Shown one piece after another: positions 561-42,802 of a DNA stretch of 64,000 bases. Numbering within the stretch: the first letter of the stretch is position 1; the number at the start of each line of letters is the position of its first letter. The notes under the pieces were generated by a model. The model did not search any database and had not been told where the DNA came from. It saw only the letters and a program-made list of their open reading frames with translations. Both the position numbers and the translations under genes were made by a program. Source of the stretch: Blasia pusilla (taxonomy: Eukaryota); the NCBI GenBank assembly GCA_050084515.1, contig CM114271.1, positions 9,796,001-9,860,000 of the forward strand. The letters run 5' to 3'.

Positions 561-598
561 CCATGTAATTTTCTGACAGGTTGAGTTTGGATGTGCAG

Positions 599-3693: not shown

Positions 3694-3749
3694 GTTCAAA
3701 GAACTCAACGACCTAGCTTGACTGGAGCGTTTGGAGTAGGGAGTTTTTT

Positions 3750-4857: not shown

Positions 4858-5542
4858 TTGGATTCCCAACCTGTTAGATTGTCGTGGGTGCAGGGTGGAA
4901 GAAAATCACTTCTAAAAATCTTTCCTTTCTTATGGTGAGCTTTCTTACGGGTTGGGAGGGGTGCAACTTCTCCGTTTCTCAGATTTAGGATCTGAATGAA
5001 GGGACATCAGTTCCTCTTTACTCCAGACAGCTAACAATCTTTTGGTTCAATTATCCTCTAAAGTGTTCACATTTCACAAAGTTGGTCTTGAGCAGACACC
5101 ATTCATAACCAACAGAAAGTTGGTTATGGGGCAATTTTGGGGAGGCCATGATGCAGGCAACAATCCCTGCAAAAAGAGAGGTAGGCATCCGGGTGGTCCT
5201 CCAACAAAAATACCCATGGGCATTGTTTTTTGTAGACCGAGACAGGTAATGTTAAAAAACTTAGGCTCACATGGAGAGTGATGGAAAAATGTTTGTAGTG
5301 GTCTTATGATGTCTACTTTTTTTTCGCCCCCAGGAAAAAGGAGGTTTTTTTAGGGCCAAATGTGGACCACTACCTACTCTCTTCTAAAGATTTCATGAAT
5401 TTGAAAGCAAACAAAATTTTCAAATATGTCAAAAAGTTTTGAAGAGAGGAGGCGGATTTGGCCTTTTTTTTTTAAGAGAGACTCTCCTCTCTTCCTCTCT
5501 TCCTCTCCTCTCTTACTCTCTCCTGCTAGAATACCAGCTCCC

Positions 5543-8500
5543 CAAAATTTTTGGGGAATTCGAAATCCTTGGCCCCCCCCTAGGTAGACCATAACGGTCC
5601 CATGTAACCTGATTTGAGTCCCACCGCCTTCCTCCACAGTAAATCTTGTACGGTCTGCAAGGTGGCACCCATGCAGTATCAATATATGCTCCGTCCTTGG
5701 AAACCAATAAATCCCTACTCCAAAACGCTTCAGTCAAGCTGGATCCTTTAGTTCTTTGAACTCACTCGTCATCGTCCAAGAGCTCTTCCAGAATTATTGT
5801 CGGCCTTGCCCTCCCGATTTTTGGAATAGTGGGAAGTGACGATGGTGTCACTACCAATGGTGGGTCTAGATCCGGAGCTCTTGGATTTGGAGGAGAGTTG
5901 TCTGCTCCAACTAGCGTGTCGTAATTTTCCTTTGCCTCTTTGCAAAGGTCATAAAGTTCCTGCCTTCCCTCAAGGCAGAGAGTGTTCCTTCCACTCTACC
6001 ATGCGCCTCTAATACTTGCCCTTGATAGGCCCACTAAGTCAAACACCAAGTCACCCAGCCTTGAACAGAGCTCGATGAGCGTTTGCATCAAGGTAGGGGA
6101 CTTTCCCCTTCCTCCAAGTAAGGGGGTACTGTCCTGCATGTAAATTCCCGGGGGGTAATTGTATAAACTATCTAAGCTATACCCATCGGAGCATGGATCC
6201 ACAGGATCGAGGATCTTAAACACCTGGAAGTTGTGCTCGGGCCGAACAAAGCAATAAACATAGGAGTGGTCCATCTGTAAAGAAGCAGGTTGGAAACAAT
6301 GTCAGCAAAAAGAAAGAGCTACTTGACCGCTGGTCTACTCTCAATATGGTGACACAATGTGCAACACGTCCATAGTGCATTCTAGTCCCTGTTGATTACC
6401 AACCCATAAGAACTTGGCCTAAAGTCCTAATAGTAGAGCAACTTGTCGGAGTCAGACGAGTTTTTTTACAAGTGTGATTGTTTTTTTTTTGCCTTGAGCA
6501 ACCCATCGAAAGCCGATAGGTTGCTGCCTAAGAGCAATCCATGGTTGGCTAAGAGCAACCCGTCGCTTTCCAACGGGTTGCACTCACTCAATGGAGACTT
6601 GTGGTGAATTTGCAACCCGTCGCTTTCAGACGGATTGCAACACCGCAGCCACAAGCTCTTGTGATCCGACAGGTTGCATGCAAAGATGCAACCCGTTGGA
6701 GCATGACGGATTGAATTTGGATTAAGAGTCCTTACCCGGACTTGACTCGTCGCCGATCGGAGTGGATACTCGTTCTTGATGACCCATGATTGCGCCGTCC
6801 TCCACTTCAGCGACATCTTCACGTACTCAAGGTTGAAGAGCTCGTCCTCGCACCCTCCAGTCAAGACCAAGAAACAACCCCTGTCACTCAAATAAGCGTC
6901 CGCAAAAGAAAACAAGAGCGCAATCTGATCATAGGTAAGAGGTTTCGCTTGTGGGACAACAATCCGTCTGACACTGTCCCAGACGGATTGTTGTCCCACA
7001 AAGCGAAACCCAGAAGGAAAATTTGCGATGAGGAGATCCACCGCCACCTCCTCGACCACCCCATAGACCATCCAAGGAGCGTGTCCGTTTCGTTGAAGTT
7101 TTTGTCCCAGCATGGTCAATTTATCGATGGCGGGTGTCGACTCTTGGGAACTGAAACTTTGCAGATCATCCACAAGATTCGTGAAGTGAATGAGGACATT
7201 TGTCCTGGTCGTTGTTTCTCTATGTCTTCCCAAGGATGATGGAGTGTATTCCACATCCTTATCTGCTCCTTGGGACGAACCACGCGCCTCCCGCTTTCGC
7301 TTCTCCCGAGTCTGCGGTCCGCTTGTGGGGGTCTCTGTTACCTCAAACTCGACTGGAGTTTTCTTGGCGGAGGACTTGGTCCAGCCCTCTTGCCCCGCTC
7401 GCTCAAACGATTTCGCCTCTCGCCTTGAGGTCTTAGCCTCTTTTATGGAAGAGTCGGCCTCAGATTCTTCGATCCCCTCGCCTTTCCTTTCAGACCCGTT
7501 GTAGATTTTTCCTTGGTGGTGACTACCTTGGACACCAACTTCGTTGTCTCAAGGGCTTGCTCCTCCGCATCTCCTTCCAAAAAATCTTCAGGCTGCACGA
7601 AATTCAAAATATCGTCCCTACCTGCGACCAATGCATCATACACCAGGCGTAAATTTTTTTCGGTTAAGTCCTCAGGGTCGTTGAAGTTCAACCAGATTGG
7701 GCAATTGTCAACCTCCCAGTCGGACATGCCATGTGTCATCTCTATGTTGCACATGGAAAATGCCTCTCCATCAGGCGAAGAAACCCACAATTTGTAGGCT
7801 GCCGGTATTTTTTGTCAGGTACTTGCATTCTTACAATTGATGAGGTACATGTACACCATCCGTTGGGTAGCTCTTTTTCGAGATGAATCGATCGCATGCT
7901 CTTGAAGATCTTGCTTCTTCTTTGCGAAATCCCTTTTCTTGGCCTCAATTTCTTCATCCAGGTCTGCCTGGGGGAGGATGTGATTCTTGAACATCATCCT
8001 GAAGCCTCGGTTTTTTGTGGGCTTGTCTCGGATGTGATCAAGCCATAGTTCAAAATATTCTACACTCTCGAGGTTTGCTTCCTACAGAACTGGCTCTATC
8101 TTCTTCAACTCGGCTTGAAGACCCATGAGCATGGACTTCCCAAGAAGCTGTAACGCATCCCAGAATGACCATTCACGTAGCGAATGGGAGATCACTAGAT
8201 CAGAAACTCCCAGAGGATGGTGTGCCGCCCTCTTTTGGGCCTTTGTGCCCTCGAGACTAATTTTCATCAGTCGGATTCTCCTAAACTCGGAAATTCCAGA
8301 CAGTGCAATTCTGTGAACGCGGTCCAGAGACACTTTCTCGCCGATCCGACCCTGTGGATCTTCGTCTCTCTTCTGTTGGCGCTTGATTATCGCCTTGAGC
8401 TCCTTGTAGAATTTCGGGCCAAGTTCCGGGTTCAGAATGGCAATGTAGCGCTGCATCTTGCTTGCAGTGTACTTCGTAGCTGTAGATACTGCAGACTGGA

Positions 8501-8952
8501 TAAACTTTGCACGTTTAGACGCAAACACGTTCTCCCTTCGCTCCAATTCCAATGAAGCGCTCTTCTTGGCGGCTTGGATCTTCGACCAACAAAGGATTGC
8601 GATGGCTGCATCTTGGGAAATGAAGCTATTTTCCCAAGTCTTCTTTTTAATTTGAGCCCCCATCGCCAGCATCTTTTTTACCAGAGCGTCGCCCAAGAAC
8701 CCCTTGTACTCTGCCGGGTGCGTTGTAAGCACCTTTTTCACCTTGTCACAATCCTGGATCCAACGGTGGGTGACGTTCCCCTCGGATACAATCCTGCACA
8801 TCCAAACACACGCTAAGAATTATTGCAAGCTACAGGGTTCTTGCAACCCATCGGACTCCGATTGGTCGCGCAACACCTGGTGGTCAAAATGGTAGCACAG
8901 AGAAAAATATTGCAACCCGTCGGGGTCTGACGGCTCGCAACACTTTTTTTTC
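5543..8952 (-). pseudogene. Copy B: inverted internal fragment of the element, with the last two cargo-gene exons (MTase-like domain)
   Basis: Minus-strand ORFs 8082-8801, 7815-7997, 7443-7790, 6466-7254 and 5996-6274 are homologous to the cargo protein of copies A and C, with the same splice positions. Both sides abut termini of other copies. Confidence 0.85.
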
Positions 8953-10653
8953 GGGGGCTGGTATTATGGCAGGAGAGAGGAAGAGAGGAGAGTCTCTCTT
9001 AAAAAAAAAGGGCCAAATCCACCTCCTCTCTTCAAAAAATTTTGACATATTTGAAATTTTTGTTTGCTTTCAAATTCATGAAATCTTTAGAAGAGAGTAG
9101 GTAGTGGTCCACATTCGGGCCTAAAGAAACCTCCTTTTTCCAGGGGGCGAAAAAAAATTAGACATCATAAGACCACTACAAATATTTTTCCATCACTCTC
9201 CATATGAGCCTAAGTTTCTTAACATTGCCTGTCTCGGTCTACTATAAGCAGTGCCCATGGGTATTTTTGTTGGAGGACTACCCGGATGCGCATCGGTACG
9301 ATGCCAACCTCTCTTTTTGCAGGGATTGTTGCCTGCATCATGGCCTCCCCTGAATTGCCTCATAACCAACTTTCTGTTGGTTATGAAATCAGGTGCGTGC
9401 CTGGATCGGCCCAGTAGTGTTCTTGGATGCGGCGAGTGTAGGTTCTAGAGCCCATTGCCCGCATCTATGGTGGACCAACTTGGTGCCCCATGCGGTGTTA
9501 TGGAGGGCGTATGGGAGAGTGGAGCACCCCTCCCATTTGTTAGTGGATACCATTATGGATCCAGGTCGTCGATCACAGGCAGTGAGGCATGATGATCGAC
9601 CACCGTTGGATCGTGGGTCACCAGAGAGTAGGCGAGCGCGGGCGCCTTGCCCACGTTTGTGAGTTTTTCCGCTTCCTATGCATACAAGGAGGCCGGTCCT
9701 GGCTTGGTTTGGGATGACCAAGTTCAGCGGTTGGTGGAGCCCAACTCTTTTACTGCTGCTTGATTATGGCCTTCAACTCTTTGTAAAAGTCGGGGCCGAG
9801 CTCGGGGTAAAAGACGACGATGTACCGTTGCATCTTGTTGGCAAGGTCACCGCCGATATCGCAGTCTGAATGAACTTAGCTCTCTCATAAGCTGAAACAT
9901 TCCCTCTCCGCTCTAGCGCCAATGTCACGCTTCTTTTTGCTGCCTGGATTTTGAGGTAAGTTTTTTCTCTTGCAACCTATCGGAGTCCAACGGGTTGCAA
10001 GAGAAAAAAGTTCCCTGATCTTCTGACCCGTCAGAGTCCGAAGGGTTTCTAGGAAACTCAATAGAAAGCCAAATACAATTTGTCGGAGTCTGACGGATTG
10101 TAAATATCGAAGCGAGTTCTTCCTATTGCAACCCTTTGCCTTTCGATGGGTTGCTGCTATCGTTAACAATTGCTTCTAAGAACCAACCCGTCGGAGTCTG
10201 ACGAGTTGAAATCGGTTCATATTCGGGAAAAAAGTTTCAGGATACTTACATGTTCATGGAGTGCATGGCCATCTCCACCATGGCCATATGATTCGGGTAG
10301 GGATGGAGAACTACCGCCCTCACATAGAAATGAGCCTCAAAGGATTTTGGTCCCTCCGCTTCAAACTGAGACCATGCCATAAATCGATGGTTGCCGTCCT
10401 AGATGAAGAAGTACAAGTTCTCCATCCACTCGTCCAGGGTTCCTGCCACTGCTTTGCGGAACTCCACGTCTCTCAACCTACAAAAAGCATCAAGACTCTC
10501 CAGGTCTTCCTTGGTTACCAAAGATTGGGTTCCATGCTCATCATAAGGTTGAACATAGAAAGGTGGGAAGCTATCCATGTATGAAGCTGTTGCCACAAAC
10601 TGCTTCAACTTGTCAATGTCTTCCTTGAATTGGATTTCTCAAATGTATCCATC
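8953..10653 (-). mobile_element. Copy D: deleted/rearranged derivative (right terminus plus cargo exon fragments incl. ParB-region exon)
   Basis: GGGGGCTGGTATTATGGCAGGAGAGAGG terminus at 8953, ~440 bp of terminal sequence, exon fragment 9737-9955, palindrome intron 9970-10210, ParB-region exon fragment 10250-10653 (SYMDSFPPFYVQPY) with intact GTAAGT donor. Confidence 0.75.
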
Positions 10654-15724: not shown

Positions 15725-18700
15725 TCAAAGTGGTTTGTTTAAAAGACTCCCCACTTCTTTGAGGGACAGAATTGGTTGGTGGATTCCTACTCCTACCTCC
15801 GACTCTCTTAAAACTACCAGCAACACATAGTACATGTGCTTACAAGGGAAATACCTTTTGCCACTTGTCTCTCTTTGGACAAAGTCATCACATGAACATG
15901 TGGGAAAGCAACAGATGTGCACCACATACACCCATGTGACACTTGAATTTACAGTGTTGTTCCTGACCCAATACATCCTTCCTATTCCATTGCCACTCAT
16001 GACATCTTTTTGTGGCGATGATCTCTATTTTTGCCTCCCGAGCTGATGCAACTCGCTTTGCTCTCTCTACCGTTGGCCTACACATTCTGTTTCTCTTCAC
16101 CCCATTTCTAGACTCAAACAGAAATAGTGGATTGAGATCATCCACCTTCTCCGGGTACATGTTGACATCAATCTTGGGTTGAATACAAAATGCGAAGGTC
16201 TTTGTAATGCAAACATGCTCCGAACTTCCTCCATCTACGAGTATGAAACCGGCACTTGTAAGATTGTCCACTTCGTCTTCAGTGCAGTTCGTACCTGCAG
16301 CGATGGGCCAAATCGTGGGGGTATTCCCCGGAGCTCCAATGGCAGCCGGATAATACTTCCGAAAAGCGCATGATTCATTTGGGCAGAAGAAGTACTTCAA
16401 TTGATCCCCGGTCCTCCTGAAATAATCAAAGGTTTTGAGTCCCCAAAACCCAAGCAGTGGTTATTCTGTCCTTGTACAGTTCTTATTTAGGAAAGTGCCG
16501 CATGCTCTCCTAATGCCATCAAATCCTGCCTTGTAAGTGGGTCCACGTCCTGAGCTGCTCCGAGATATATGCCATTGTTTTAGGTTGCAACCCACCTCCA
16601 TTACCAGAATCCCATATTGTTGAACCATCCCACTGACCGGATGTTGCAAACTTCCAGCAACGGAGGGCTTTTGAAATAAAACATTCACTGATTTTGGAGA
16701 AGTAACTCCATCACGGATTTGGGAGTGGTCCGGGGTCCCCGAATACCTAGGCGACGTAATTTCCTCATCCAAATCAATCACCGGATTTGTTCCTCGATGC
16801 TGCCTCTTCATCTTCCTGAAGTCAAGATACTTATCTGGTCTCCACGAGTCTCGCTCGAACTGCTCTACCACCATCTGTATGCGACGTCTTGAAACCCACC
16901 CACGAATATCCCCACCAATGTGTACATCTTGCTCAAGGGGAGTTCCTGCTACGCACCGGTTGAAGGCTTCCACATAGATTTTTTCATCACCAGATCTCAC
17001 AACCGCCCTGACATAGAGCTCGTAGATCAAAGCCCCCCTTCCATTTGTTATGCCTTTTGTGAGGAAGATATGGGATGTTGCAGACTGTAGCATTGCTCTT
17101 GCCTTGTCTTGTTGGCATGCCTCCACAAGTGAAATTTGTTGGCATGCTTGTGATGACCTCCACGAGGAATGAACACTTTCTGCTCCACTTGTGTTGGGGC
17201 AGAGGGCATTTTCATGAATGTTCAATCCCTGCAACAACGGCAATGTTAGAAGGGAACGAAAATAGCTCAGAAGTCAAAGAAATAAGCTACCTCTCGGAAC
17301 CAGACGGATTGCAAGGCCGAGGCATCCCATGAACGAATCTGCGACCCATCGGGTCCCGACTTGTTGCAACACCCAGGAAACACCTACTGCAACCCGTCTG
17401 ATTCTGACGGGTTGCAAGAACCTTTGGCCACTCCGGGCTGGAAGATCCAAGTGCAAGTCATCCGAAACCCATCCAGGTAGAACTATTTACACGCCTTGTA
17501 TACATGCAACTTGCATACTTGAATACGGGTTGCACCAAAATTCTTGATGCAACCCGTCGGTTTCCGACTAGTTGCACACTCGGGCAACCCATCGCATCCG
17601 GAAAATTGCTTGGTTTCTTCGATTTGAAATCCCTATAGTGCCCACACTTCTCAACTTTAGCTACAACTTTTCAAACCATTCTCAGCGTGAGCTTGACAAG
17701 ACAAAATAGTGAACTCACCTGCCGCATGAAGTTTCCCCATTGTCTCATACGTATAGTCCATCAACTCAGCCAAGAGCACAACTCTTTGTACTTCCCCTCA
17801 ATCGCATGCTTCCTCCACCACCCATAAAGTTCTTCTTGGCATTCCATGGCCTTTTTCAAGGTTTTGATGTCCTTGCAGCGTTGGAGTAGAGTGACATGCT
17901 CTGTCCTCTTATTCTCCTTGATGCAAGATTTGGTGTACCGGATCACAGACTGTTGCCAATTGAAAGCATCCGACCTTTCCCTCTCCAGTTGAACCTCTCC
18001 ACCCCAGAACACTTCCCTGATAGCAATCCACCCAGGTTGTGCATTGTCCTCCATGAACCCATAAATTTCCGGAGGTGGCCTTTTGTTTTCCTTCACCATC
18101 TCCAATAAGAGTAACCAGCACATCTTCAAACTACCAACGTCTTCCGCTTTTAGTTCAAAGACAAATATAGTTTTGAGTCCCTTCTCCACATGGTCATAAA
18201 CATGAGCACCCATTGTCAACCATCCGTTTTGCACTCTGTAGCAAATATCAAAGCTCACCCAGCTGCCGTTAAGATCTTCCCCTTCCCTCATTCGATCTAT
18301 AAGATCGAGGCCACTCGATGGACCTGTGGTTGACATTTTGAAGACATAGGCCCTGGATCCCTCGCCTCCCTGGCCCATGAATTGCCATCTCTGAATGAAT
18401 GGAAATATGGAGTTGGCCTTGATTCAGGCAATGGCATCCATTTCGGCCGTCTTTCCATCCAGTACCCATATTTGACGCAGCAAATTTCGAAAGCATTCAG
18501 GATCAGCGAGAAATGCGAGATTTTCCCATAATTGTTTCTCCTCAACAGCCATGATCTCCCCCTGTCCAAGGATTCCAAGCAATTGTTCACAAATTTGTAA
18601 TGTTGTTGTGAGCTTGATCATTCCGGGCTTTGAACCCGGAGAGTTTTTGTAGACCTCGGCAACTTTCTTCGCCACATCCTCCTTGATGTGTCTTTGAATT

Positions 18701-19721
18701 GCATCAGTCACACGATGAGTGTGGGAGCCAACATGAATTGACAGCCTTGTGTACTCTGACGTGGAGCCCAAGTCATGGACAATGAAAAATATGTATGCAT
18801 GACACGCTCCAACGTAGAATGGGGATGCCTGACAATGAGGACATCGATGGCCTCCCGACGGTATGGTGGCACCGACCTCGTATGGAGTTTATGCATTCTT
18901 GGGGGAAATTGCGACGTATTGACTCGCTCTAGATATGGGCATATTGGACTTCTACACTCCAAGGCTCCAACGCATTGACGGCGGGAGACAATCCAAGGAC
19001 CATTTGGAATTGAAGCACTAGTCCGTTGAAGCCTGCACCATCGATGACAATCAGACTTTCTGTCCATACCCTTCAAGCGTCCTCCATCTTTCTTTTGAGC
19101 AGGAGCAGCAAGTGGAGGCAACTCAAAAATGCAATTACCATCGTACGTGGGCGGAAGCTCGTCGACAAGAATATGCTTGAACATTTTCAAGGCGAGAGAC
19201 GATAGCAAACTATTGCCTAATACTCGCAAGAGGAACGAGTAGGCGGACAGAGGGCCCGGTTGGTGTCCGATAGATCCACTGAGGTTGAGAACATCCGGAA
19301 TATCTTCAAGAAGTACAACATTGTTACGAGCGTGTGAAGTTGGAGTCGAAGCCGGATCTATTGAGCTTGGAGTTGCAAACATAGAGCTCGGTGCACTAGG
19401 AAATTCTCGACCGTCTACTTGGGAAACAGAAGAATTCAGGGGCAAGCCGTAAACTCTGTATTGACCATTTGCTAGAGGTAGGAGATTCCATACTTTACGG
19501 TCTGCAATCATTGGCTGGACTGTCTCACCTATTATGTCCTCCGTACCGTCCACCCTAACATCCTTGGATACAAAGATGTTTCCAATTTGGAGAAGAAATC
19601 GAATTGAGAGAAAATTTTCATCCACTGCTATGAAAGACTCACAAGCTTGCGGTCGAACGATTTCTGATTGAGGAAGGGCCGCTAGATGACTACCACAAGT
19701 GAGCTTCACATAATTATCCAT
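15725..19721 (-). pseudogene. Mutator-family DDE transposase with N-terminal WRKY/GCM1-like Zn region and C-terminal SWIM finger; one intron (17229-17718)
   Basis: CVGALECRSPIC...HVGSHTH; candidate catalytic triad WVSFDICY / GFMEDNAQ / NTSGAESVH; SWIM CSCDDF...CKH at 15725-16000. Splice sites CAG|GTGAG and TTGCAG|G join in frame. A few frameshifts and stops. Confidence 0.8.
17300..17600. repeat. Palindrome cluster within the transposase intron
   Basis: For example TGCAACCCGTCTGATTCTGACGGGTTGCA at ~17388-17416 and TGCAACCCGTCGGTTTCCGACTAGTTGCA at ~17548. Confidence 0.85.
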
Positions 19722-19865
19722 TCCCAGAAGATTCTACCGGGAGGAGAATGAGAATGAGAATTTTTAACTTATAGTGAATAGGGACTCAGATTCTCCTGAC
19801 AGAATTTGACTGACAAGATGAAGTTTGGTAGTTGAAAATGTATGACATAATGGATTAAATTTTTT

Positions 19866-20800
19866 TGCAACCTGTTGGAGTCAGGTGGGTTGCAAAATTT
19901 GGGAATCAGAGACATTGGTTGCGAAGGATGCACTTCTTTTTGTTGGAACCCGTCGGAGTCCATTGGGTTGGTATCCCCTTCTTGCTGACCAAAGGTTTTT
20001 GATTCGATTTTGCTAGCATCAAACACAAGATATCGCTTGCATATGCTAAGGCAACCAATCGTTGGGGACTTTTGCGGGATTATCCAACTCAGGGTAGATC
20101 TTGTGACCCGTCGGATTGCAATGGGTTGCCTCGGAACTATGCGTTGTCGCATTGTTACCCGAGGGATAGAAAATTGTGCAACCTGTCAATAACCGATGGG
20201 GAACCCTGGTACCTTGCCTATTAACCCAAGATAAGCAAAGCGTGCAACCCGTCGGCTTCGGACGGGTTGCACGCTTCTGCCTCACCTTGTAACGCTAACA
20301 TGAAGGAAGCGTGCAACCCGTCGATCTCCGACGAGTTGCGCGGGTGCCGCGTCTTCTTGCCCGAAGACGGCGGAGGCACGCAACCTATCCGCCTCAGACG
20401 GGTTGCGCAATTGTCTCACCTTGTTACCCTTACATTAAGGAAGCGTGCAACCCGTCGGTTTCGACGAGTTGCGCGGGCCGCACCTTCTTGCCCAAAGACG
20501 GCGGAGACGCGCAACCTGTCGACCTCAGACGGGTTGCGCAAGTGCCTCGCCTTGTAACGCTTACATGAAGGAAGCGTGCAACCTGTCGGCCTCCGACAAG
20601 TTGCGCGGGAAGTCCGCCTTGTTATCCCAAGACGAGGGAAGCGTGCAACCCATCGGAATCCGACGGGTTGCGCGAGTACCTCGTGTTCTTGTCCGAAGAC
20701 GACGGAGGCGCGTAACCTGTCGCTCTCCGACGGGTTGCCACGAGGACGGAAGCCTTGAACCCTCGAGAAGCATGCAACCTGTCGAAGCCGTTGGGTTGGT
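19866..20800. repeat. Intergenic palindrome array; ~130-bp higher-order units, each with two palindromes, between the divergent genes
   Basis: AAGGAAGCGTGCAACC recurs at ~20303, ~20437 and ~20567, each followed by two GCAACC...GGTTGC palindromes. Confidence 0.9.
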
Positions 20801-21729
20801 TTTTTAGGGTCCAGACTTCCATAACGGTCTAGACGCGTCGGTGAGGAGAGCAGAATTGGCAAAAGCTCGGAGGGAAAAAGCAATTGCCATTGAAGAAAGC
20901 CCTGCCCGTCCAACCAAAAGTGTTGAGATGGAGGAAATGTCCCCGATGAAGTCCAGGGACACAATCAATATAGCGGAAACGGCCGAAGTTCAAGTGACGG
21001 ACGATGAGGTCATGAGGACCGCCATCGTGGAGATGGTGGACATCGCTGAAGAAGCAAGAGAGCGGTCATCCTCGTCCCTAAGCCCGGCGGAAGAAATTGA
21101 CCTCTATCGGATCGATGAGTTTCCAGTGGACTTGCTAGCTGCTGTCCCAGAGCAGTTGGCTGGCCTAGACACCGACCCAAGCTTCAAGCGAGTAAGAGAG
21201 GATCTGTGTTCTTTGAATTATGTGAAGGCCCATGTTGCAATTCATTGGCAATTCAGTGTAGCTTATTCACCTTTTCCCCGTTGTGACAGGTGGTAAAGTA
21301 GATGGCACTGATGGAGTACATCCGCGAAATTCAGTCTGACGAGGATATTGCGAAGCTGAAACAATCGGCAACAACAACATCCTACGTTGACAGCTTCCCT
21401 CCATTCTATGTTCAGCCTTACAATGACCATGGAATCCAAGCGCTGGTTACGGAGGAGGACTTGGAAGCGCTCGACACATTCTGGAGGAGGAGAGATCAGG
21501 AATTCAGAAGGGCGATAGAGGGGACAAAATTCAGCTGGATGCGGAACTTGTATTTCTTCATGTGGGATGGAAACCACAGGTTCATGGCGTGGACCAAATT
21601 TGCAGAGGAGCGCCCAAACTCATTGGAGACACATTTTTGCGTGAAGGCAGTGGTGCTACATCCATAGCCTCATCACATGGCAATGGTGGAGATGACCATG
21701 CATGCCATGAACACATAAGTTTCCTCTTA

Positions 21730-22310
21730 TTGCAAACCGTCGGACTCCGACAACTTGTTTGAGTCGCCACTGTTTTTGGAATGTTTTTGGCCGAAAGCAA
21801 CTCCTCGGACTTCGACGAGTTGCTCGACTCATCACTGGTTTAGGATGTTTTTGGCCGAAAGCAACCCGTCGGACTCCGACGAGTTGCTCGACTCACCGCT
21901 AGTTTTGGATGTTTTTTTGAAGAAAGCAACTCGTCGGAGTCCGACGGGTTGCTTGACTCGAAGCTGTTTTTGGATGTTTTTTGATGTTTCTGGCTGAAAG
22001 CAACTCGTCGGAGTCCGACAGGTTGCATTCGAAAGTAGGGGAGCTACATTGTTGGCGTCAAATTGCACCTTTAATTGAAATTTTGCAACGTGTCGGACTC
22101 TGACGGGTTGATATGTTCACTTTTCTCGCGGAAACCATTCTCTAAATACGGATTATCTGACAACCCGTCGGAGTCCAACGGGTTGAAACCAGGCAATCAC
22201 AAATGTGAATGCAATCCGTTGGACTCCGATGGGTTGCAAAATTTAGCTCGTTGCTTCCATTCCGACCATGAGCTGTGACGACCTGTCGGAGTTTGACGGG
22301 TTGCAGGAAC
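21730..22310. repeat. Palindrome array in cargo intron (64-65-bp period)
   Basis: Units at 21732, 21797, 21861, 21926 and onward, e.g. GCAACCCGTCGGACTCCGACGAGTTGC at 21861-21887. Confidence 0.92.
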
Positions 22311-24429
22311 CCATGTACCTTGCAAAATTTCTAATATTGAGTTTGGATGTGCAGGATTGTATCGGAGGGGAATGTCACCCACCACTAGATCCAGGATTAC
22401 GATCGGGTGAAGAAAGCGCTAACGACGCACCCGACAGAGTACAAGGGGTTCTTGGGTGATGCCCTTGTTAATGAGATGCTGGAAAAGAGTGCTCAAATAA
22501 AAAAAAAGACTTGGGCAAATAAGTTTATTTCCCAAGATGCAGCCGTGACAATCCTTTGCTGGTCGAAGATATAGGCCGCCAAGAAGAGCGCTGCATTTGA
22601 GCTGGAGCGGAGGGAGAAAGTGTCTGTGTCTCAGCGTGCAAAGTTCATCCATGCTGCAATATCTGCAGCTACGAAGTACACGGCAAGCAAGATGCAGGCT
22701 ACATCGCTATTCTCAACCCCGAACTTGGCCCGGATTTCTACAAGGAGCTGAAGGCAATCATCAAGCGCCAGCGGAAGAGGGATGAAGATCCGCATGGTCG
22801 GATTGGGGAGAAAGTGTCTCTCGATCGCGTGCATCAATTTTCCTTGTTTGGAATTAGCAAATTTAGGAGAAGCCGACTGATGAAAATCAGTCTCGAAGGC
22901 ATAGAGGCCCAAAAGAGGGCGGCACACCATCCTTTGAGTGTCTCTGATCCAGTCATCTCCCACTGGCTCCGTGAATGGTCATTTTGGTACGCGTTGCGGC
23001 TTCTCGGGAAGTCCATGCTCGTGGTTCTCCAAGCCGAGCTGAAAAGAATAGAGCCAGTTTCGGAGGAAGCAAACCTGGAGAGTGCTAAAGATTTTGAACA
23101 TTGGCTTGATGACATGCGGGACAAGCCCATAAAAAACCGAGGTTTCAGGACAATGTTCAAGGATCGCATCCTCCCTCAGGCAGACCTTGACGAAGAAGTA
23201 GAGGCGAAAAAAAGGGATTTTGCAAAGAAGCAGCGAGATCTTAAGGAGCAGGCAGCCGATGCATTTTGACTAAGAGCTGCCCAACGCATGGTGTTCAGGT
23301 ACCTCGTCCATTGTAAGACTGCAAGTACATGGCAAAAAATAGCGGCAGCCTACAAATTGTGGGCTACTCCGCCTTATGGAGAGACATTTTCCATGTATGA
23401 CATGGAGATGGCTCAAAGCATGTCTGATTGGGAGGTGGAGAATTTCCCGATTTGGCTGGACTTCAACGACCCTGAGGACATAACTGAGAAAGATCCACGC
23501 CTACTCTATGATGCAGTGGCCGCAGGTAGGGACGACATCCCCAATTTTGTGCAGCCTGAAGACTTTTTTGAAGGAGATGCGGAGGAGCCTGCCCTCGAGA
23601 CAGCGGAGTTGGTGTCCAAGGTCGTCACCGCCAAGGACAAATCTACAGTGGGTCTCAAAGCCAAGGCGAGGGGATCGAAGAATTTCGAGGCCGAGTCTTC
23701 CCAAAGAGAGGCTGAAAATTCAAGGCGAGAGCCGGAATCGTCCGGGCGAGCGGGGAGAGAGGGTCGGACCAGGTCCTCCGCAAAGAAAAATCCACCAGAG
23801 TCTGAGGTCATAGAGACCCCAACAAGCCGACCACAGACTCGGGAGAAGCGGAAGCAAGAGGCGCCAGGGTTGTCCTAGGGAGCAAACCAGGATGTGGAAT
23901 ACACTCCATCATCCTTGGGAAGACATAGAGAAACAACGACCCGGACAAGCGTCATCCTTCACTGCACGAATCTTCAGGATGAGCTGAAAATTTTCAGTTC
24001 CCAAGCGTCGACACCCGCCATCGAAAAATTGACAACGTTGGGACGAAAGCTTCAACAAAACGGACACACTCCCTGGACGGTCCATGGGGAGGTTGAAGAG
24101 GTGGCGATGGATCTCTTCGTCGCTTCTTTGCCCTTGGGGTTGCGCTTGTGGGACGAGAATCCGTCCAACGGGGTCCCAGACTGGAATGTCCCTCTTTCTT
24201 ATGACCAAATCGCGCTCTTGTTTTCCTTTGCAGACGCTTATCTCAGTGACAGGGGTTGTTTCTTAGTTTTGACTAAAGGGAGCGAGGACGAGCTCTTCAA
24301 CCTCCAGTGCGTCAAGAGGTCCCTTAAGTGGAGGACGGCGCAATTGTGGGTCATCAAGAACGAGTACCCACTCCGATCCGCGACGAGTCAAATTCGGGTA
24401 AGGGCTCTAAATTTTTATCCAAATTGTCT

Positions 24430-24755
24430 TTCTCCGACGGGTTGCATCTCTGCATGCAACCCGTTGGATTGTTTGAGCTGGGTCTGTTTGCAATCCGTCT
24501 GAAAGCGACGGATTGCAAATTTACCGCAAGTCTCCATTGGGTGAATGCAACCCGTCGGAACCCGACGGGTTGCAAGTGCTAATGCTTTTGCAATTTTATG
24601 GAATGATGCAACCGGTCTGAAAGCGATGGGTTGCTCTTAGCCAACCATGGGCTGCTCTAAGCCAGCAACCTGTCCCCTTCCGACGGGTTGCTCATGGACA
24701 AAAAAATCACAAGACACTTGTAAAACAATCCGTCGGACTCCGACAGGTTGCTCCA
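24430..24755. repeat. Palindrome cluster in last cargo intron
   Basis: For example TGCAACCCGTCGGAACCCGACGGGTTGCA at 24546-24574. Confidence 0.88.
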
Positions 24756-27322
24756 ATGTTAGGATTATAAAGAAGTTCTCTAGGGTTAAGCGAAGTTCTT
24801 TGGGGATGTGTTGCACATTATGTCACCATACTGAGAGTAGACCAATGGCCAAGGTACTCTTTCTTGTTGCTGACATTGTTTCCAATGTGATTCTTTACAG
24901 ATGGACCACTCCTATGTTCACTGCTTTGTTCGGCCTGAGCACAACTTCCAGGTGTTTAAGATCCTGGATCCTGTGGATCCATGCTCCAATGGGTACAGCT
25001 TAGATAGTTTATACAATTCCCCCCCGAGAATTTACATGCAAGACGGTACCCCCTTACTTGGAGGAAGGGAAAAGTCGCCAGCCCTAATGCAAACGCTCAT
25101 CGAGCTCTGCTCAAGGCCGGGTGACTTGGTGTTCGACTTAGTGGGCCTTTCAGGGGCGAGTATCAGAGGCGCCTGGCAGAGTGGCAGGAACATTCTCTGC
25201 CTTGAGGGAAGGCAGCAACTTTTTGACCTTTGCAAGGAGGCAAAGGCAAATTACGACAGGCTAATTGGGGCGTACAACTCTCCTCCGAAGCCGAGAGCTC
25301 CGGTTCTAGACCCACCATTGGTAGTGACACCATCGTCACTTCCCATGATTTTGAAAATCGGGAGGTCAAGGCCGATAGTAATCTTGGAAGAGCTCTCGGA
25401 TGATGACGAGTGAGTTCAAAGAACTCAAGGACCCAACTTGACTGCAGCGTTTGGAGTAGGGATTTATTTGATGACGAGGCAAAAGATTTCATATAATAGA
25501 TCAAATGTATAGTTCCGAGCTTCTTTCGGATGTAGTAAAGGACAAGATTTTTTCGAACGATGATGGTGTTTGTAAAAGTTTGTTGAATATCTTTTTTGGT
25601 CTTGTCGAATGTGATCGTCTATGTACTCCGAGGACTTCTATTTTGCAAACCGTCGGATTTCCACGGCTTGCAACTTTTCACCTTTTTAACCACTTCCAAG
25701 CAACCTGCTGGATTCCGACAGGTTGGCTACATGAGTGATCAGACTCTTTCGGACTCTTTAGAGACATTTTTGGCGGGCTTCTTCACTTTGGCTCCTTCCC
25801 CTAGTATGGTCAAACAAGGCGTAGGCTTCTTCTCTTCTCTCAGACGTGTTAGATTCCTACTACCTGTGGGATTGCCATTTCTATTTCCAAGGACGGAGCA
25901 CATATTGATACTGGATGGATGTCACATTGCAGAGCGTACAAGATATACTGCCGAGGAAGGCGGTGGGACTCAAATCAAGTTACATGCGACCGTTATGGTG
26001 TACCTAGGGGGGGGGCCAAGGCTCTCGAATTCGCCAACATTTTCGATCCCCGTCTACAATCGGCCAGAGGAGCCACTTATATCCTAGGACATTCCTTTTG
26101 TACAGGAACCTAGGAGAGTTAGGAGTAGATTTGTAGATGACGAGGCTGAAGAAATCATAGACTAGATCAAATGTACATTTCCGAGATTCCTTCGGATGTA
26201 ATATAGGATGAGATTTTTTCAACCGATAATGGTATTTGTAAAAGTTTGCTGAATATTTTTTTTGGACTTGTGGATTGTGTTTTTCTAGCTACTCAGAATT
26301 ACAATTTTGCAACCCGTATGATTCCGACGGGTTGCAACTTTTCCCTTTTTGACCACTGCAACTTTTTAACCATTTTTAGGCAAGTTGTCGGATTCCGACA
26401 GGTTGGCTGCTTGAGTGATTGGACTCTTTCCCTGTGAGACCAACTTCTGAGGCATTGTGGCCGACTTCTTCACTTTTGGCTCGTTCCCCTAGATTCGTCA
26501 AACCAATTGTAGGCTTCTTTTCTTGTCTAAGATGTGCAGGATTCCTACTACATGTCAGATTGCCATTTCGGATTCCCAACCTGTTGGATTTTTGTGGGTT
26601 TAGGGTGGAATGGAATCACTTCTTAAAATCTTTCCTTTCTTATGGTGAGTTTGCTTGCAAAGGGTGCAAGCCATCTGATTCCGACGGGTTGTAAGAGTTG
26701 CAACCTCTAAAATTCCGACGAGTTGGGAGGGGTGCAGCTTCTCGGTTTCTCAGATTTAGGATCTGAATGAGGGGACATCAGTTCCTCTTTACTCCAGACA
26801 CCTAACAATCTTTTGGTTCAATTATCGTCTCATGTGTTCACATTTCACAACGTTGGTCTTGAGCAGATACCATTCATAACCAATAGAAAATTGGTTATGA
26901 GGCTATTCAGGGAAGGCCATGATGCAGGCAACAATCCCTGCAAAAAGAGAGGTTGGCATCGTATTGATGCGCATCCGGGTGGTCCTCCAAAAAAAATACC
27001 CATGGGCATTACTTATTGTAGACCGAGACAAACAATGTTAAAAAACTTACGCTCACATGGAGAGTGATGGAAAAATGTTTGTAGTGGTCTTATGATGTCT
27101 ACTTTTTTTCGCCCCCTGGAAAAAGGAGGTTTCTTTAGGCCCGAATGTGGACCACTATCTACTCTCTTCTAAAGATTTCATGAATTTGAAAGCAAACAAA
27201 AATTTCAAATATGTCAAAAAATTTTGAAGAGAGGAGGCGGATTTGGCCCTTTTTTTTTAAGAGAGACTCTCCTCTCTTCCTCTCTTCCTCTCTCCTGCCA
27301 GAATACCAGCCCCCAGGAAATT

Positions 27323-34056: not shown

Positions 34057-34366
34057 TGTGGAAAACTGCTAAATAAGCATAACTGGCAGAAAACGGCTCT
34101 CACACACACACCACCATGGAGAACAAAATTTGCAATGAGAGAATGAGTGGAGGCTAGTCCTCTTCTCAATTATATAGGATATGTACAAGAAAACCTAACC
34201 CTACCCTTAACCATAGTCTTGAGTCAGACAAACTAGGATTAACTAACCCTAGTTAAGATAATCGTGCTTAATTGACTAACAAAGATTAAGCTTTCCTACT
34301 TCGTGTGAGTACCAAATGTAGCAGTTCAGGTGTCTCATGAGCTTGACTGTAACTCAATCTTCAATA
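34057..34366 (-). repeat. Copia 5' LTR
   Basis: Adjacent to PBS; matches 28102-28415. Confidence 0.93.
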
Positions 34367-40900: not shown

Positions 40901-42802
40901 TCTTTTTATATGCATCCCATTCACATGCGTAGGCAATGCTTCACCTTCTTACATCTCCAACTTCAAGGAACCATTCTCAAAAATTTGAATCACTCCGTAA
41001 GGTCCCATCTAGTTCAGTTTAAGCTTCCCTAGAAACTTCAGACGTCGGTTATTATAGAGCAACACAAGATCTCCTTCACTAATAGATTGAGGTTGAAGAT
41101 GTTTATCATAGCTCTTCTTCCTCTCCGCTTGCATAGTCTTTGTATGTTGGAGAGCAAAGAGCCTTACCTCTTTGAGTGCTACCAAGTCTTCATTCCTCTT
41201 CTTTGTTATGATTGGTTCCTCTTCGTCACATGTATCTTTCAGAATTCAACAGGTAGGAAGATCCCATTCAATCAGGGGCTGGTATTCCGACAGGAGAGAG
41301 GAAGAGAGGAGAGTCTCTCTTAAAAAAAGGGCGGAATTTGCCTCCTCTCTTCAAAAATTCATGACATTTCTTTATATTTTTCTCTCTTTCAAATGGTAAC
41401 AAGTGGACCAGATTGGGGCATAAACTAACCTCATTTTTCCAGGCTTGGATCTAATAGTAGATAGAAGGAGACCACTTCATACATGCTTACATCACTCTCT
41501 ATGTAAGCCAATTTTTTTCCAAATTGGTTTGTAAGCCAGTAAGAGGGAAAGCCAGCCAAAGGGTATATTATTGTTGTATAACCATCTGCAACATTTTTAT
41601 CAGTACAAAACTATTTTCATAACAATGATAGGTGCTAATAAACAATCAAACTATGGTGTCGATACACGACATTTCCTTCAAGGTTTGAATTCTCAATAGA
41701 TGAAAAGACGATGGGCTCTTAATACATCAATGCATGAAAAATCTCAACCGATCAATGCAGATCCATCAGATGGGGTTTTTTCATAACATAACAAATCAAA
41801 TCCGTACTCATCAAATCAAAATACAATCTGATGACTAGGTCTAGCCCAAGACTTTCACTGATGATAGATGGGATTTTTTCTCTGACTGATGATAGTCTTG
41901 GAGATAAAGGAATTGAAAAAGATGACAGGTGATTTGGTGAAATCACATGTCATTAGAAATGTTGGCTCACGAATAGGCACATGTGGAGGCTGATGGGCGT
42001 CTAGCAACTCTATTTAAACACACATGTGAGAATTAGAGGAACCAAACAAGAAGGCCTAGAAGGAAGGACTGAGAGGAAAATGGAAGCATTCAGCCAGCCA
42101 ACCTGTCAGAATCCTACAGGTTGCTAGATGTCAGAAGTCAATAAACGCTAGTGACCTAACAAGAGAAGAGAGAGAATGAAGTGAATACAAGGCATCATCC
42201 TTACATGCAACCTGTTGGAATCCGATAAGTTGCATGAAAGATGAAGGTTGGATGTAAGAACCCGTCAAACTAATCCCCTAAACCCTAAACTTGTCAAAAT
42301 CCGACACGTTGCAGGACAAGAGACGAGGAGATACCGAAAACAAACATGACAGATCAGGGGTAAGAAAATTGAAAGAAGTACAGCCCAAAAATTTTGAAAA
42401 GCATATTTCAAGTTGTTTATTGAAATTCATTTGCAATTCAGATATTTACATTGGATTTCTTGAACTAAACTCTTGTATATGATCTCTTCCGCCTCGTCAT
42501 CTACAAAAATGTTCCTAAGTCTCTTTGGTTCCTATACAAAAGACTTCACCAGGCTAACTAGTGGTTCCTCTTGACAATTGTAGATGGGGATGGAAAAAGA
42601 AGGGGAACTTGAGAGTCTTGCCCTCCTAGGTGCTCCATATCGGTCCTATTTCACTTAAGATATGTCCCAACGCCTACCCTGACATGTTATCTTGTATGCT
42701 CTCCAAAGTGACACCCATATAGGATCAATATGTGTTGCTCTCCATCTTAAAACCACTACTAGCCCACTCCAAAATGTGTGAAATCCAACAAGCCAGTGCA
42801 CT

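Follow-up and report, generated by a model that had tools for sequence, protein, structure and literature searches.

A methyltransferase-fold gene on an abundant repeat element of the land plant Blasia pusilla

A stretch of 64,000 nucleotides from Blasia pusilla (assembly GCA_050084515.1, contig CM114271.1, positions 9,796,001 to 9,860,000), here called the window, contains at 20808-25413 what a preliminary description made from the sequence alone took for an intron-containing fusion of a ParB-like domain with a beta-class methyltransferase of prokaryotic type, carried by a transposon. The locus raises the question of what kind of protein is encoded there and what it could do for a mobile element. 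The observation itself is real: the window contains a multi-exon gene five times, as copies or fragments, and 20808-25413, termed copy C, is one of them. The explanation that fits best, with a probability of roughly 0.6, is a decayed element gene for an accessory protein with a non-canonical beta-class methyltransferase fold, the likely target of which would be the palindromes of the element itself.

The repeat element and its copies

Copy C is one decayed copy of a gene on a very abundant repeat element of this land plant that is amplified as DNA. The 11.9 kb around copy C attract 82,857 of 12.43 million DNA reads (run X14; 0.67%). The five gene pieces in the window show 68-94% DNA identity, and four 3' ends terminate at one common sequence. 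DNA read depth and the comparison of ends support the proposed transposon in the form of an element present in very many copies with a common 3' terminus. The introns are kept in all copies, which indicates amplification at the DNA level. A 5' end of the element, a terminal inverted repeat and a target-site duplication were looked for, and none was found.

All five gene pieces in the window are pseudogenes now. The window start truncates copy A (27..5549, plus strand) within the first intron; this copy contains stops at 1505 and 2603. In copy B (5706..8939, minus strand), a 5' truncation falls within the first intron, and in the last exon a stop follows the residues RGAW. The divergent fragment copy E (9636..10653, minus strand) consists of an N-terminal exon (10239-10653) with one TAG and, downstream of it, part of the large exon (9636-9952). 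Copy D (41275..43295, minus strand), divergent at ~69% identity, comprises the last exon and the 3' part only. Sequence comparison within the window further reveals an isolated 3'-terminal element piece at 8954..9387 on the minus strand.

Downstream of copy C, the 3' non-coding part of the element (25414..27313, plus strand) ends at the shared terminus ...GAATACCAGCCCC and contains an internal duplication (25446-25890 / 26115-26579); a variant without 25423-25883 is found in DNA reads and RNA reads. Upstream lies a palindrome array (19867..20807) with a period of 67 at 20238-20738, over which DNA depth is about half that of the flanks. Beyond it lies a neighbouring gene in divergent orientation (15888..19733, minus strand) with broken open reading frames and palindrome copies at 17389-17596. 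The DNA depth of this gene is similar to that of the methyltransferase-like gene, and its RNA comes from the minus strand. Searches of Pfam and the PDB gave no match and no recognizable transposase domain for it; the gene may encode the transposase of the element.

Gene structure, splicing and decay

In its full form, the gene comprises about 990-1080 codons in three or four exons. In copy C, all features of which lie on the plus strand, the N-terminal conserved exon (21302..21714), the "ParB-like" exon of the preliminary description, has an alternative start at 21290 behind an AG acceptor and shares 67% amino acid identity with that of copy E (10239-10653, minus strand). Its motif DGNHRFMAW (21566..21592) is identical as a peptide in copy E (10372-10398). 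The first predicted intron (21715..22354) is filled with a ~65-bp tandem array of a 27-bp palindrome. The large exon (22355..24397) encodes a middle region and, from about 24020 to 24397, the first half of the methyltransferase-like domain. After a second predicted intron (24398..24900; GT-AG, phase 0), which also contains palindrome copies, the last exon (24901..25413, stop at 25411-25413) encodes the C-terminal half of the domain. A putative first exon at 20808..21191, an open frame that may start with the ATG at 20928 and is followed by a GTAAGA donor at 21192, has no counterpart in the other window copies and no Pfam match. Loose read ends show that many copies in the genome differ upstream of 20827 and at 21311-21316; this stretch may be part of the gene.

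The decay of copy C can be traced by comparison with its relatives. The N-terminal exon contains an in-frame TAG at 21665-21667 (TAC in copy E), and the donor at 21715 has changed from GT to AT. The large exon carries four stops and one frameshift: TAG 22386 (TGG in copy B), TAG 22572 (CAA in copies A and B), TGA 23267 (CGA in copies A and B), TAG 23876 (CAA in copies A and B) and a 1-base deletion near 22697, where 363 of 654 DNA reads have an extra C.

Evidence for the two predicted introns comes from conserved GT-AG sites and from frame continuity, and the methyltransferase part is split by an intron of the spliceosomal type. At the junction 24397/24901 (phase 0), the donor CGG/GTAAGG and the acceptor TTTACAG/ATG are kept in copies A, B and C, and the sequence between them diverges among the three. 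At the junction 21714/22355, the acceptor TGCAG/G is kept in the same copies, and the donor is ATAAGT in copy C compared to GTAAGT in copy E, the divergent one; position 21714 is the second base of a codon, and base 22355 restores the downstream frame. RNA reads on the 11.9 kb number 513, 740 and 545. Most of them are less than 95% identical to copy C and therefore come from other copies. Their strand bias fits low-level sense transcription, with the highest sense-strand depth within the gene in the last exon. In the RNA-read check of the two junctions that had been suggested beforehand, neither is among the 15 joints listed (402 more in total). The continuous frame, the conservation of the splice sites and the physical linkage seen in two lineages suggest that the N-terminal and methyltransferase exons would be joined in one transcript.

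Purifying selection

Pairwise alignments of the copies were analyzed with a simple Nei-Gojobori script, with stop and gapped codons dropped. Between copies, dN/dS lies at 0.17-0.37 in exons versus about 1 in non-coding controls. The start of exon 3 gives 0.31 and 0.21, the middle region 0.31 and 0.28, the motif-IV part 0.23 and 0.37 and the last exon 0.27, 0.25 and 0.17, compared to 1.18 in the intron 24398..24900 and 1.05 and 0.89 in the 3' non-coding part. The gene is seen five times in the window with exon dN/dS well below 1 and is therefore more than a product of chance. The protein, including the DGNHRFMAW exon and the middle region, has been under purifying selection while the family diversified.

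These values also bear on a simpler explanation. Plant DNA transposons often capture pieces of host genes, and the methyltransferase-like gene could be such a captured or decaying fragment, amplified with the element as passive cargo; every window copy is broken, and the catalytic motif described below is degenerate. This is nevertheless quite improbable, as the low dN/dS holds between copies down to 69% DNA identity with controls at ~1 and the splice sites are conserved. Moreover, the liverwort Riccia sorocarpa has a multi-copy family of homologues at ~28% identity that share both the architecture and the unusual motif IV.

The methyltransferase-like domain

The last ~300 residues, split by the phase-0 intron, adopt a beta-class N6_N4 amino-methyltransferase fold derived from the bacterial, phage or giant-virus type. 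The C-terminal part had been assigned to this group beforehand, and the assignment is supported by family-profile matches in the PDB, Pfam matches and the model of a Riccia sorocarpa homologue; the beta class follows, as already recognized, from the position of motif IV before motif I. Taken singly, the window exons always remain below the Pfam gathering score: the last exon of copy C matches N6_N4_Mtase with 21.1 bits (E 3.4e-4; cut-off 26.7), and that of copy A matches with E 0.019. Further matches of the last exon are the NCBIfam DNA methyltransferase PRK13699 (E 0.038) and, for copy A, a PHROG DNA methyltransferase (E 6e-5) and eight PADLOC families, all eight of them methyltransferases (best MTase_II, E 5e-4). 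These weak matches all fall on the motif X/I region.

Profiles extend the assignment to the whole domain. A four-copy last-exon profile finds 14 proteins at E<=1e-3 among 1.84 billion, eight of which (P0003, P0005, P0008, P0009 and P0011-P0014) are family members. Sub-threshold PF01555 matches occur in five of these eight, with P0009 covering profile positions 2-212 of 221. A 42-sequence family profile, A4, matches M1.HpyAVI/DpnA (E 3.1e-8) and CcrM (E 1.2e-4) in the PDB, spanning motif IV to motif I, and N6_N4_Mtase (PF01555) is the sole Pfam family matched at E<=0.01, in 28 of the 42 members. The AlphaFold model built with A4 for P0008, a Riccia homologue only ~28% identical to the window exons that stands in for the spliced protein of the window, reaches a pLDDT of 77.8 and a pTM of 0.79. 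In a Foldseek search of the PDB with this model, ranks 1-43 among the matches listed are all DNA amino-methyltransferases, the top matches are exclusively of the beta class, and CcrM comes first (E 7.7e-14). The Riccia proteins are collinear with the middle region, the motif-IV exon and the last exon, with P0028, P0051, P0019, P0024 and P0067 aligning to 22700-24283 of the large exon; both halves therefore belong to one protein. A horizontal origin of the gene is plausible, as its closest relatives outside plants are methylases of bacteria, phages and giant viruses.

The motif strings originally cited for 20808-25413 come from two copies. YFFMWDGNHRFMAW (with DGNHRFMAW at 21566-21592) and KSPALMQTLIELCSRPGDLVFDLVGLSGAS...GRNILCLE (25069-25206) are present in copy C, whereas VDLLIADMP, YLSDKG, WIIKN and HSYVYCFVR belong to copy A (open reading frames 1799-2605 and 3154-3693); the corresponding strings of copy C are MDLFVASLP, YLSDRG, WVIKN and HSYVHCFVR. 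Its last exon contains motif X, EKSPALMQTLIE (25069-25104), motif I, DLVGLSGAS (25135-25161), and GRNILCLE (25183-25206). The SAM-side motifs of the family are retained as K-S-x-x-L-M-Q-x-L-I-E (motif X), a weakened motif I, D-L-x-G-x-S-G-A-S, and G-R-x(5)-E. Most of motif X, the ribose-binding E and the D and one P of motif IV are kept, and the first glycine of the motif I GxG is missing in the window copies and in ENA fragments.

The catalytic tetrapeptide is D-[LM]-P-[ST], followed by G, throughout the family, compared to the canonical (D/N/S)PP(Y/F/W). Motif IV reads VASLPLG in copy C (24119..24139), IADMPSG in copy A (2348-2368) and IANFPSG in copy B (7009-7029), aligned with DLPSG/DMPTG of Riccia; P0009 has DPPT. 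Copy A and the Riccia proteins begin this motif with D, and a single proline is retained. The aromatic residue and the other proline are absent in all 16 Riccia-type rows and in all three window copies covering the site. Judged by these motifs, the enzyme is probably non-canonical or has lost its activity; given the residues that are kept, it may still be active in an unusual way. Pseudo-methyltransferases such as METTL14 would be a comparable case.

The N-terminal exon

DGNHRFMAW is strictly conserved between copies C and E although six of its nine codons differ, all synonymously as read from the alignment; the whole exon shows a pN of 0.176 and a pS of 0.873. The motif resembles G-x-H-R of ParB/Srx and DGQHR of DndB-like proteins. 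The identity of the peptide in two copies with saturated synonymous sites would agree with a genuine ParB/Srx fold and with the descent of the protein from a phage or plasmid ParB-methylase fusion. The language-model feature neighbours of the exon point in the same direction, as they belong to the ParB_N, DUF6551 and DUF3723 families: the 30 nearest named clusters include 11 matches in the family set with ParB_N, 8 in the DUF6551 set and 6 in the DUF3723 set, and 8 of the ten best family-bearing matches share a family or clan. Shared features amount to 119-165 of 256, below the tool's typical same-family value of 170, and in the best cluster of this kind no more than 11% of the members carry ParB_N. 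In a structural comparison of the methylase domain with viral proteins, rank 10 is taken by a phage protein of 494 aa with the name ParB/Sulfiredoxin. Conversely, Pfam, NCBIfam, PHROGs and PADLOC give no match to the exon at E<=10, PDB sequences yield no ParB and no relevant match, and a near-length search of 5.8 billion proteins, a phage tblastn search and a metagenome scan return no homologue. The AlphaFold model of the exon has a pLDDT of 44 and is unusable. The ParB/Srx identity given in the preliminary description is not confirmed by these searches, and the language-model neighbours serve as a lead. A ParB/Srx-like domain in this exon is a tentative assignment, just short of even odds. 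If the assignment holds, the whole protein would descend from a phage or plasmid ParB-methylase fusion, and this part could bind a nucleotide or load on the parS-like palindromes.

Palindromes and possible function

The element-specific 27-bp palindrome GCAACCCGTCGGA-N-TCCGACGGGTTGC forms arrays in the introns and the upstream region. A total of 114 half-sites are observed versus 0.81 expected by chance, and 110 of the 114 lie within element pieces. The gene span of copy C contains 25 half-sites, none of them in exons. In the first intron, half-sites extend over 21732-22304, with a period of 65 at 21738-21981 (Tandem Repeats Finder). GANTC, with a free middle base, forms the center of 21 of 35 full palindromes and is the site of CcrM-type enzymes.

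These centers, together with CcrM as the top fold match, would suit the earlier view that intact copies elsewhere encode an active DNA amino-methyltransferase (N6-adenine or N4-cytosine) marking element or host DNA, as would the conserved fold and SAM-side motifs, the purifying selection on the whole domain and the remaining D and proline of motif IV. Such activity is unlikely given the loss of the aromatic residue and one proline, the DPPT of P0009 and the incomplete GxG of motif I; the TSPPY that MpDN4MT1 carries according to the respective preprint (bioRxiv 10.1101/2021.02.12.428880) is likewise lacking. The preferred reading remains an accessory factor of the element rather than a host gene product. 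The protein would most likely serve as a module for binding SAM and/or DNA, having lost canonical amino-methylation. We infer that its likely target would be the 27-bp palindromes of its own element, where it could aid transposition or counter silencing.

Comparison with known systems

The beta-class PF01555 enzymes M1.HpyAVI/DpnA, CcrM, M.BceJIV, M.RsrI and M.MboIIA show the same fold, the same motif order (IV, target-recognition region, X, I) and a matching stretch from motif X to motif I with the G-R-x(5)-E strand. In contrast to these enzymes, the present family features D-[LM]-P-[ST]-G instead of DPPY, a weakened motif I and spliceosomal introns, and its domain ends a eukaryotic protein of ~1000 residues on a high-copy repeat.

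Marchantia MpDN4MT1a/b and the bdelloid rotifer N4CMT are, like the present family, broad beta-class members in eukaryotes, and another liverwort of the Marchantiales has multiple copies of a relative of the present family. A role as source or relative of plant 4mC enzymes, considered in the preliminary description, does not follow from this. The preprint describes MpDN4MT1a/b as a tandem pair of sperm-expressed host genes with TSPPY (bioRxiv 10.1101/2021.02.12.428880), whereas the present family is repeat-borne and has D-[LM]-P-[ST]-G in place of the S-P-P-Y signature. The nearest solved relatives are the N6-adenine enzymes M1.HpyAVI/DpnA, CcrM and M.BceJIV; rotifer N4CMT matches the family profile with E 0.8 and takes fold rank 27 (Foldseek, Riccia model). 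At the level of motifs and profiles, a specific link to the TSPPY-type plant 4mC enzymes is not supported.

Phage and plasmid ParB-methylase fusions (ParB_N + N6_N4_Mtase) show the same proposed order, with the candidate ParB-like part N-terminal and the methylase C-terminal, but about 600 residues separate the two parts here. According to Iyer et al. (PMC4738411), methylases from ParB-terminase loci reached eukaryotes, with derivatives in haptophytes, chlorophytes and chytrids, and land plants have few N6A-methylases. The same paper describes an inactive methylase domain in the DIRS1 retrotransposon polyprotein (PMC4738411). By analogy, both cases would combine a mobile element with an amino-methyltransferase fold, substituted catalytic residues and a presumed binding role. 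As far as that source describes it, the DIRS1 domain sits in a retroelement and derives from PCIF1-type (group 2) enzymes, not from the circularly permuted beta class. The present carrier, by contrast, keeps introns and amplifies as DNA.

TnpA of En/Spm is an accessory DNA-binding protein of a plant DNA transposon that binds repeated subterminal motifs. The present element may be analogous in encoding a second protein and carrying arrays of a short element-specific motif in its non-coding parts. The two proteins show no sequence relation, and the motif here is a 27-bp palindrome of the perfect type located mainly in the introns and upstream of the gene.

Homology and Fold of the Methyltransferase-Like Domain

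The C-terminal half of copy C, the gene under study (positions 20808 to 25413, plus strand), is soundly assigned to the beta-class N6_N4-type methyltransferases by ancestry, as the preliminary description had proposed. The last exon (24901 to 25413) matches the Pfam family N6_N4_Mtase (PF01555) with an E value of 3.4e-4 (21.1 bits), and the corresponding exon of copy A does so with an E value of 0.019 (15.3 bits); the gathering cutoff of PF01555 is 26.7 bits, which leaves the window exons alone below threshold. Further matches are found with the NCBIfam DNA methyltransferase PRK13699 (E value of 0.038) and a PHROG DNA methyltransferase (E value of 6e-5), and all 8 of the 8 PADLOC families matched by the exon are methyltransferases. 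The weak matches across the libraries all fall on one family and one place.

A profile built from four last-exon copies retrieves 14 proteins at an E value of ≤1e-3 from a library of 1.84 billion representatives. Eight of them are true relatives, a count that leaves out P0001, P0002, P0004, and P0010 (long proteins, each aligned in 4 to 22 stretches). Five of the eight show sub-threshold PF01555 matches, and the protein P0009 spans positions 2 to 212 of the 221 positions of that profile. P0006 and P0007, two LVIVD beta-propeller proteins aligning only to the first ∼40 profile positions, are judged spurious. A profile search of a 5.8-billion collection yields 72 proteins, comprising 43 ENA fragments and 29 "hypothetical proteins" of Riccia sorocarpa scattered over several chromosome-size contigs. 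A "longer" protein search, with copy A's last exon as the query, scored 0 of 640 candidates. The Riccia proteins are collinear with the motif-IV exon, the last exon, and the middle region of the window's gene; their genes are currently labeled hypothetical, "DNA methylase N-4/N-6 domain-containing," or "Trimethylguanosine synthase."

The profile of A4, the 42-row family alignment of the domain, matches M1.HpyAVI/DpnA (E value of 3.1e-8) and CcrM (E value of 1.2e-4) in the PDB, with the whole domain covered, and 28 of the 42 rows match PF01555 at an E value of ≤0.01 and no other family. The AlphaFold model of the Riccia homologue P0008, which stands in for the window's own spliced protein, reaches a pLDDT of 77.8 and a pTM of 0.79. 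Its Foldseek matches in the PDB, listed to rank 43, are all DNA amino-methyltransferases with beta-class enzymes on top: CcrM (E value of 7.7e-14) is followed by M1.HpyAVI, M.BceJIV, RsrI, MboIIA, N4CMT, and PvuII. The viral neighbors of the model are phage and giant-virus methylases. Motif IV precedes motif I in A4 as well as in the alignment A2, which is the permuted order. Homology and beta-class order are thereby established for the family and extend, via the alignment, to the gene in the window.

Catalytic Motifs and Relation to 4mC Enzymes

Motif IV of the family reads D-[LMI]-[PS]-[ST]-G. Copy A contains DMPSG, copy B NFPSG, and copy C SLPLG; the Riccia rows contain DLPSG, DMPTG, DMSSG, or DLSS, and P0009 contains DPPT. 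The aromatic residue of the canonical (D/N/S)-P-P-(Y/F/W) is absent from every row of the alignment. Preservation is good in motif X and in the G-R-x(5)-E strand, whose glutamate is present in nearly all rows. In motif I, the window sequences show D-L-V-G-L-S-G-A-S, in which the first glycine of GxG is replaced, whereas the Riccia rows retain GxG in F-A-G-G-W-G-A-S. From these residues, the active-site loop reads as conserved but noncanonical; catalysis has likely been lost or altered, and methylation by the encoded protein appears doubtful.

A possible source or relative of plant 4mC enzymes had been seen in this gene. In the report by Walker et al. (bioRxiv 2021, 10.1101/2021.02.12.428880), motif IV of MpDN4MT1a/b is TSPPY, a motif absent from the window family, and the rotifer N4CMT matches the family profile with an E value of 0.8, against 3e-8 for the N6A enzyme M1.HpyAVI. 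Since TSPPY is lacking here and N4CMT is a distant match, a special link to the 4mC enzymes is unsupported.

Copies of the Gene and Their State

The window is repeat-rich land-plant DNA with retrotransposon gag and integrase-associated fragments, and it contains five copies or fragments of the gene, copy C among them. Copy A (27 to 5549, plus strand) is cut by the window start, copy B (5706 to 8939, minus strand) is 5' truncated, copy E (9636 to 10653, minus strand) is a divergent fragment, and copy D (41275 to 43295, minus strand) retains only the last exon and the 3' part. A separate 3'-terminal piece of the carrier element lies at 8954 to 9387. Copies A and B are 81 to 86% identical to copy C at the DNA level, and D and E are ∼69% identical. 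The peptide YFFMWDGNHRFMAW and the long stretch KSPALMQTLIE...GRNILCLE, both quoted initially, are located in copy C. The strings VDLLIADMP, YLSDKG, WIIKN, and HSYVYCFVR exist too but belong to copy A, outside 20808 to 25413, and the versions in copy C differ slightly.

Copy C is a pseudogene. It contains five in-frame stops (21665, 22386, 22572, 23267, and 23876), at which the other copies read TAC, TGG, CAA, CGA, and CAA, respectively, as well as a 1-base deletion near 22697 and a mutated splice donor at 21715. Copy A is interrupted by stops at 1505 and 2603, copy B has a premature stop in the last exon, and copy E has a TAG within the conserved motif region. All gene copies in the window are dead.

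Selection on the Encoded Protein

The dN/dS values separate the exons from the noncoding controls. For copy C against A and B, the values are 0.31 and 0.21 at the start of exon 3, 0.31 and 0.28 in the middle region, and 0.23 and 0.37 in the motif-IV part; the last exon gives 0.27 against A, 0.25 against B, and 0.17 against D. The intron control gives 1.18, and the 3' noncoding controls give 1.05 and 0.89. In the N-terminal exon (21302 to 21714), the comparison of C with E yields a pN of 0.176 and a pS of 0.873, the latter being saturated. Its conserved peptide DGNHRFMAW is the same in both copies, with 6 of the 9 codons differing, all synonymously, as read by eye from the alignment. The low exon values together with the synonymous-only changes in DGNHRFMAW indicate that the whole protein was functional while the family diversified.

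The 3' noncoding end (26600 to 27313) shows 91 to 94% identity to copy A and to the piece at 8954 to 9387 (a dS-like value of 0.06), compared to 0.27 to 0.53 at synonymous sites of these copies' coding exons. This would reflect either strong constraint on the 3' terminus or mosaic copies.

Gene Structure and Transcription

The proposal that a methyltransferase-like gene gained introns is supported by conserved splice sites and by the reading frame. The intron at 24398 to 24900 is a phase 0 intron whose donor (CGG|GTAAGG) and acceptor (TTTACAG|ATG) occupy the same positions in copies A, B, and C around a diverged interior. For the intron at 21715 to 22354, the acceptor is kept in A, B, and C, and the donor is ATAAGT in C compared to GTAAGT in E; the last codon of the preceding exon has two bases only, and base 22355 brings the downstream sequence back into frame, so that the frame continues across 21714/22355 as well as 24397/24901. 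In copy E, the N-terminal exon is likewise followed by large-exon sequence on the same strand, which places the linkage of the two exons in two diverged lineages. The gene model starting from the ATG at 21302 comprises ∼990 codons, or ∼1,080 with the putative exon at 20928 to 21191 added.

In three RNA runs, of which 6 to 12% each was examined, 513, 740, and 545 reads were found. They are mostly <95% identical to copy C and therefore come from other copies. The strand bias is consistent with sense transcription of the methyltransferase-like gene and its neighbor, and the coverage, low overall, peaks over the last exon (∼28 to 30) and the 3' region. The predicted junctions 21714/22355 and 24397/24901 are not found among the 15 joints listed, beside which 402 others occur. 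The joint 25422/25884 was rejected as an intron because it also occurs in DNA reads, which identifies it as a genomic variant.

The Carrier Element and Its Neighboring Gene

Four 3' ends share one terminal sequence, ...GAATACCAGCCCC, and the copies are nested or abutting. In a DNA run labeled as the same species, 82,857 of 12,434,590 reads (0.67%) fall on the 11.9 kb around the gene at a likeness of at least 85%, and the summed depth of ∼330 to 1,460, obtained from 1% of the run, suggests hundreds to thousands of copies of the element. Introns are kept in every copy, which argues that the family amplifies as DNA. The shared 3' end, the dispersed copies, and the read abundance support the proposed transposon carriage. 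Dispersion, a common end, and DNA-level amplification are traits of class II (DNA) transposons, to which the element may belong. The 3'-terminal 13-mer has five matches in all, four being the 3' ends and the fifth a two-mismatch match at 46794; upstream of copy C it lacks an inverted partner. No target-site duplication was found, and no copy within the window has both ends.

The neighboring gene (15888 to 19733, minus strand) is a broken multi-ORF gene oriented divergently to copy C, with a DNA read depth similar to that of the methyltransferase-like gene and with RNA from the minus strand. Searches of Pfam (E value of ≤10) and the PDB return no match and no recognizable transposase. A C-x2-C...H-x-H finger and a D...D...E-like acidic spacing are seen by eye, a pattern that we take to recall Mutator-type transposases; such an identity is not claimed, as Pfam and the PDB gave no match.

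The N-Terminal Exon

The assignment of the N-terminal exon to the ParB/Srx fold is unproven. No ParB_N or other family profile in Pfam, NCBIfam, PHROGs, or PADLOC matches 21302 to 21667, its read-through, or copy E at an E value of ≤10, and a phmmer search of the PDB gives neither ParB nor another relevant match. Three homologue searches likewise end without a match: a near-length protein search, a tblastn search against phages, and a metagenome scan with alignment A3, in which 127 patterns matched and 0 were confirmed. The AlphaFold model, computed from a two-row alignment only, has a pLDDT of 44.4 and is unreliable.

D-G-N-H-R is strictly conserved between C and E and presumably resembles the nucleotide-binding motif G-x-x-R/G-x-H-R of ParB/Srx proteins. 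In a language-model feature search, the 30 nearest named clusters include 11 of a family set containing ParB_N, 8 of a DUF6551 set, and 6 of a DUF3723 set, with scores of 0.90 to 0.92 and shared-feature counts under the tool's same-family level. These neighbors are the sole positive sign for ParB and serve as a lead. The Starship DUF3723 lead yields no ParB link in a paper on it. A ParB/Srx domain is a tentative assignment, slightly disfavored on balance.

Palindromic Arrays and a Possible Fusion

The element carries a signature 27-bp palindrome, GCAACCCGTCGGA-N-TCCGACGGGTTGC. Its half-sites occur 114 times, compared to 0.81 expected, with 110 inside element pieces. Full palindromes, in which the center base is free, number 35, and 21 of these are centered on GANTC. 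Copy C has 25 half-sites within its gene span, none of them in an exon, and tandem arrays with a period of 65 to 67 fill the first intron and the region upstream of the gene. We infer that the encoded protein binds these palindromes. Over the intronic array at 21852 to 22248, sense RNA coverage is 9 to 28, compared to 0.4 to 7 in the neighboring exons, with reads that probably stem from many arrays genome-wide.

Intact copies may encode an intron-bearing eukaryotic descendant of a phage-type ParB-methylase fusion that still functions as a system on the element's own palindromes; the probability of this reading is put at roughly one in eight. The ParB-like N terminus and a methylase-derived reader would load on the parS-like, GANTC-centered arrays of the element, and the loaded complex would then mark, shield, or tether the element DNA. 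If true, a plant transposon would have co-opted a bacterial module for partition and modification, and the age of the family would reach back far enough for liverworts to share it.

Other Repeats and Genes in the Window

A direct pair of ∼1.5 kb (35072 to 36545 and 45141 to 46612, 65% identical) represents another repeated gene, whose ORFs at 35182 to 35835 and 45597 to 46262 have no Pfam match. Direct repeats at 28102 to 28415 and 34057 to 34366, 92% identical and ∼6 kb apart, enclose an ORF (30254 to 30760) with a retroviral polymerase SH3-like domain (E value of 5e-32) and are probably retrotransposon LTRs. An inverted pair of ∼1 kb (39178 to 40220 and 54389 to 55433) is 91% identical. A retrotransposon gag (11200 to 12132, plus strand; PF03732, E value of 1.5e-10), followed by a zinc-knuckle-like ORF, lies directly upstream of copy E. 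The open-ended ORF at 63149 to 64000 (plus strand) contains the plant VARLMGL motif (PF14383, E value of 2.2e-7) and DUF3741 and probably represents a host gene at the window edge.

Comparison with Known Systems

According to the survey by Iyer et al. (PMC4738411), prokaryotic amino-methylases reached eukaryotes in independent transfers, including derivatives of phage ParB-terminase loci; DIRS1 retrotransposons carry an inactive methylase domain, and land plants have few N6A-methylases. No prior report of a transposon-borne PF01555 gene in plants was found in the literature, with supplements and subscription journals outside the scope, and the Riccia genome paper mentions no methylase, methyltransferase, DNA transposon, Mutator, or CACTA.

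Eukaryotes rarely possess beta-class N6_N4 methyltransferases. In both cases studied, Marchantia DN4MT1 and rotifer N4CMT, the enzyme is encoded by a single host gene acquired from bacteria. In contrast to these host genes, the window family shows the fold within a protein of ∼1,000 residues that evolved under purifying selection on a DNA-amplified element. This is a third situation for the beta-class fold in eukaryotes, a land-plant element with a multicopy relative in the liverwort Riccia, and it indicates that mobile elements could be both vehicle and reservoir of such domains in plants. Given the conserved noncanonical loop, a testable question is how a transposon benefits from a protein with the shape of a methylase but probably no methylating activity.
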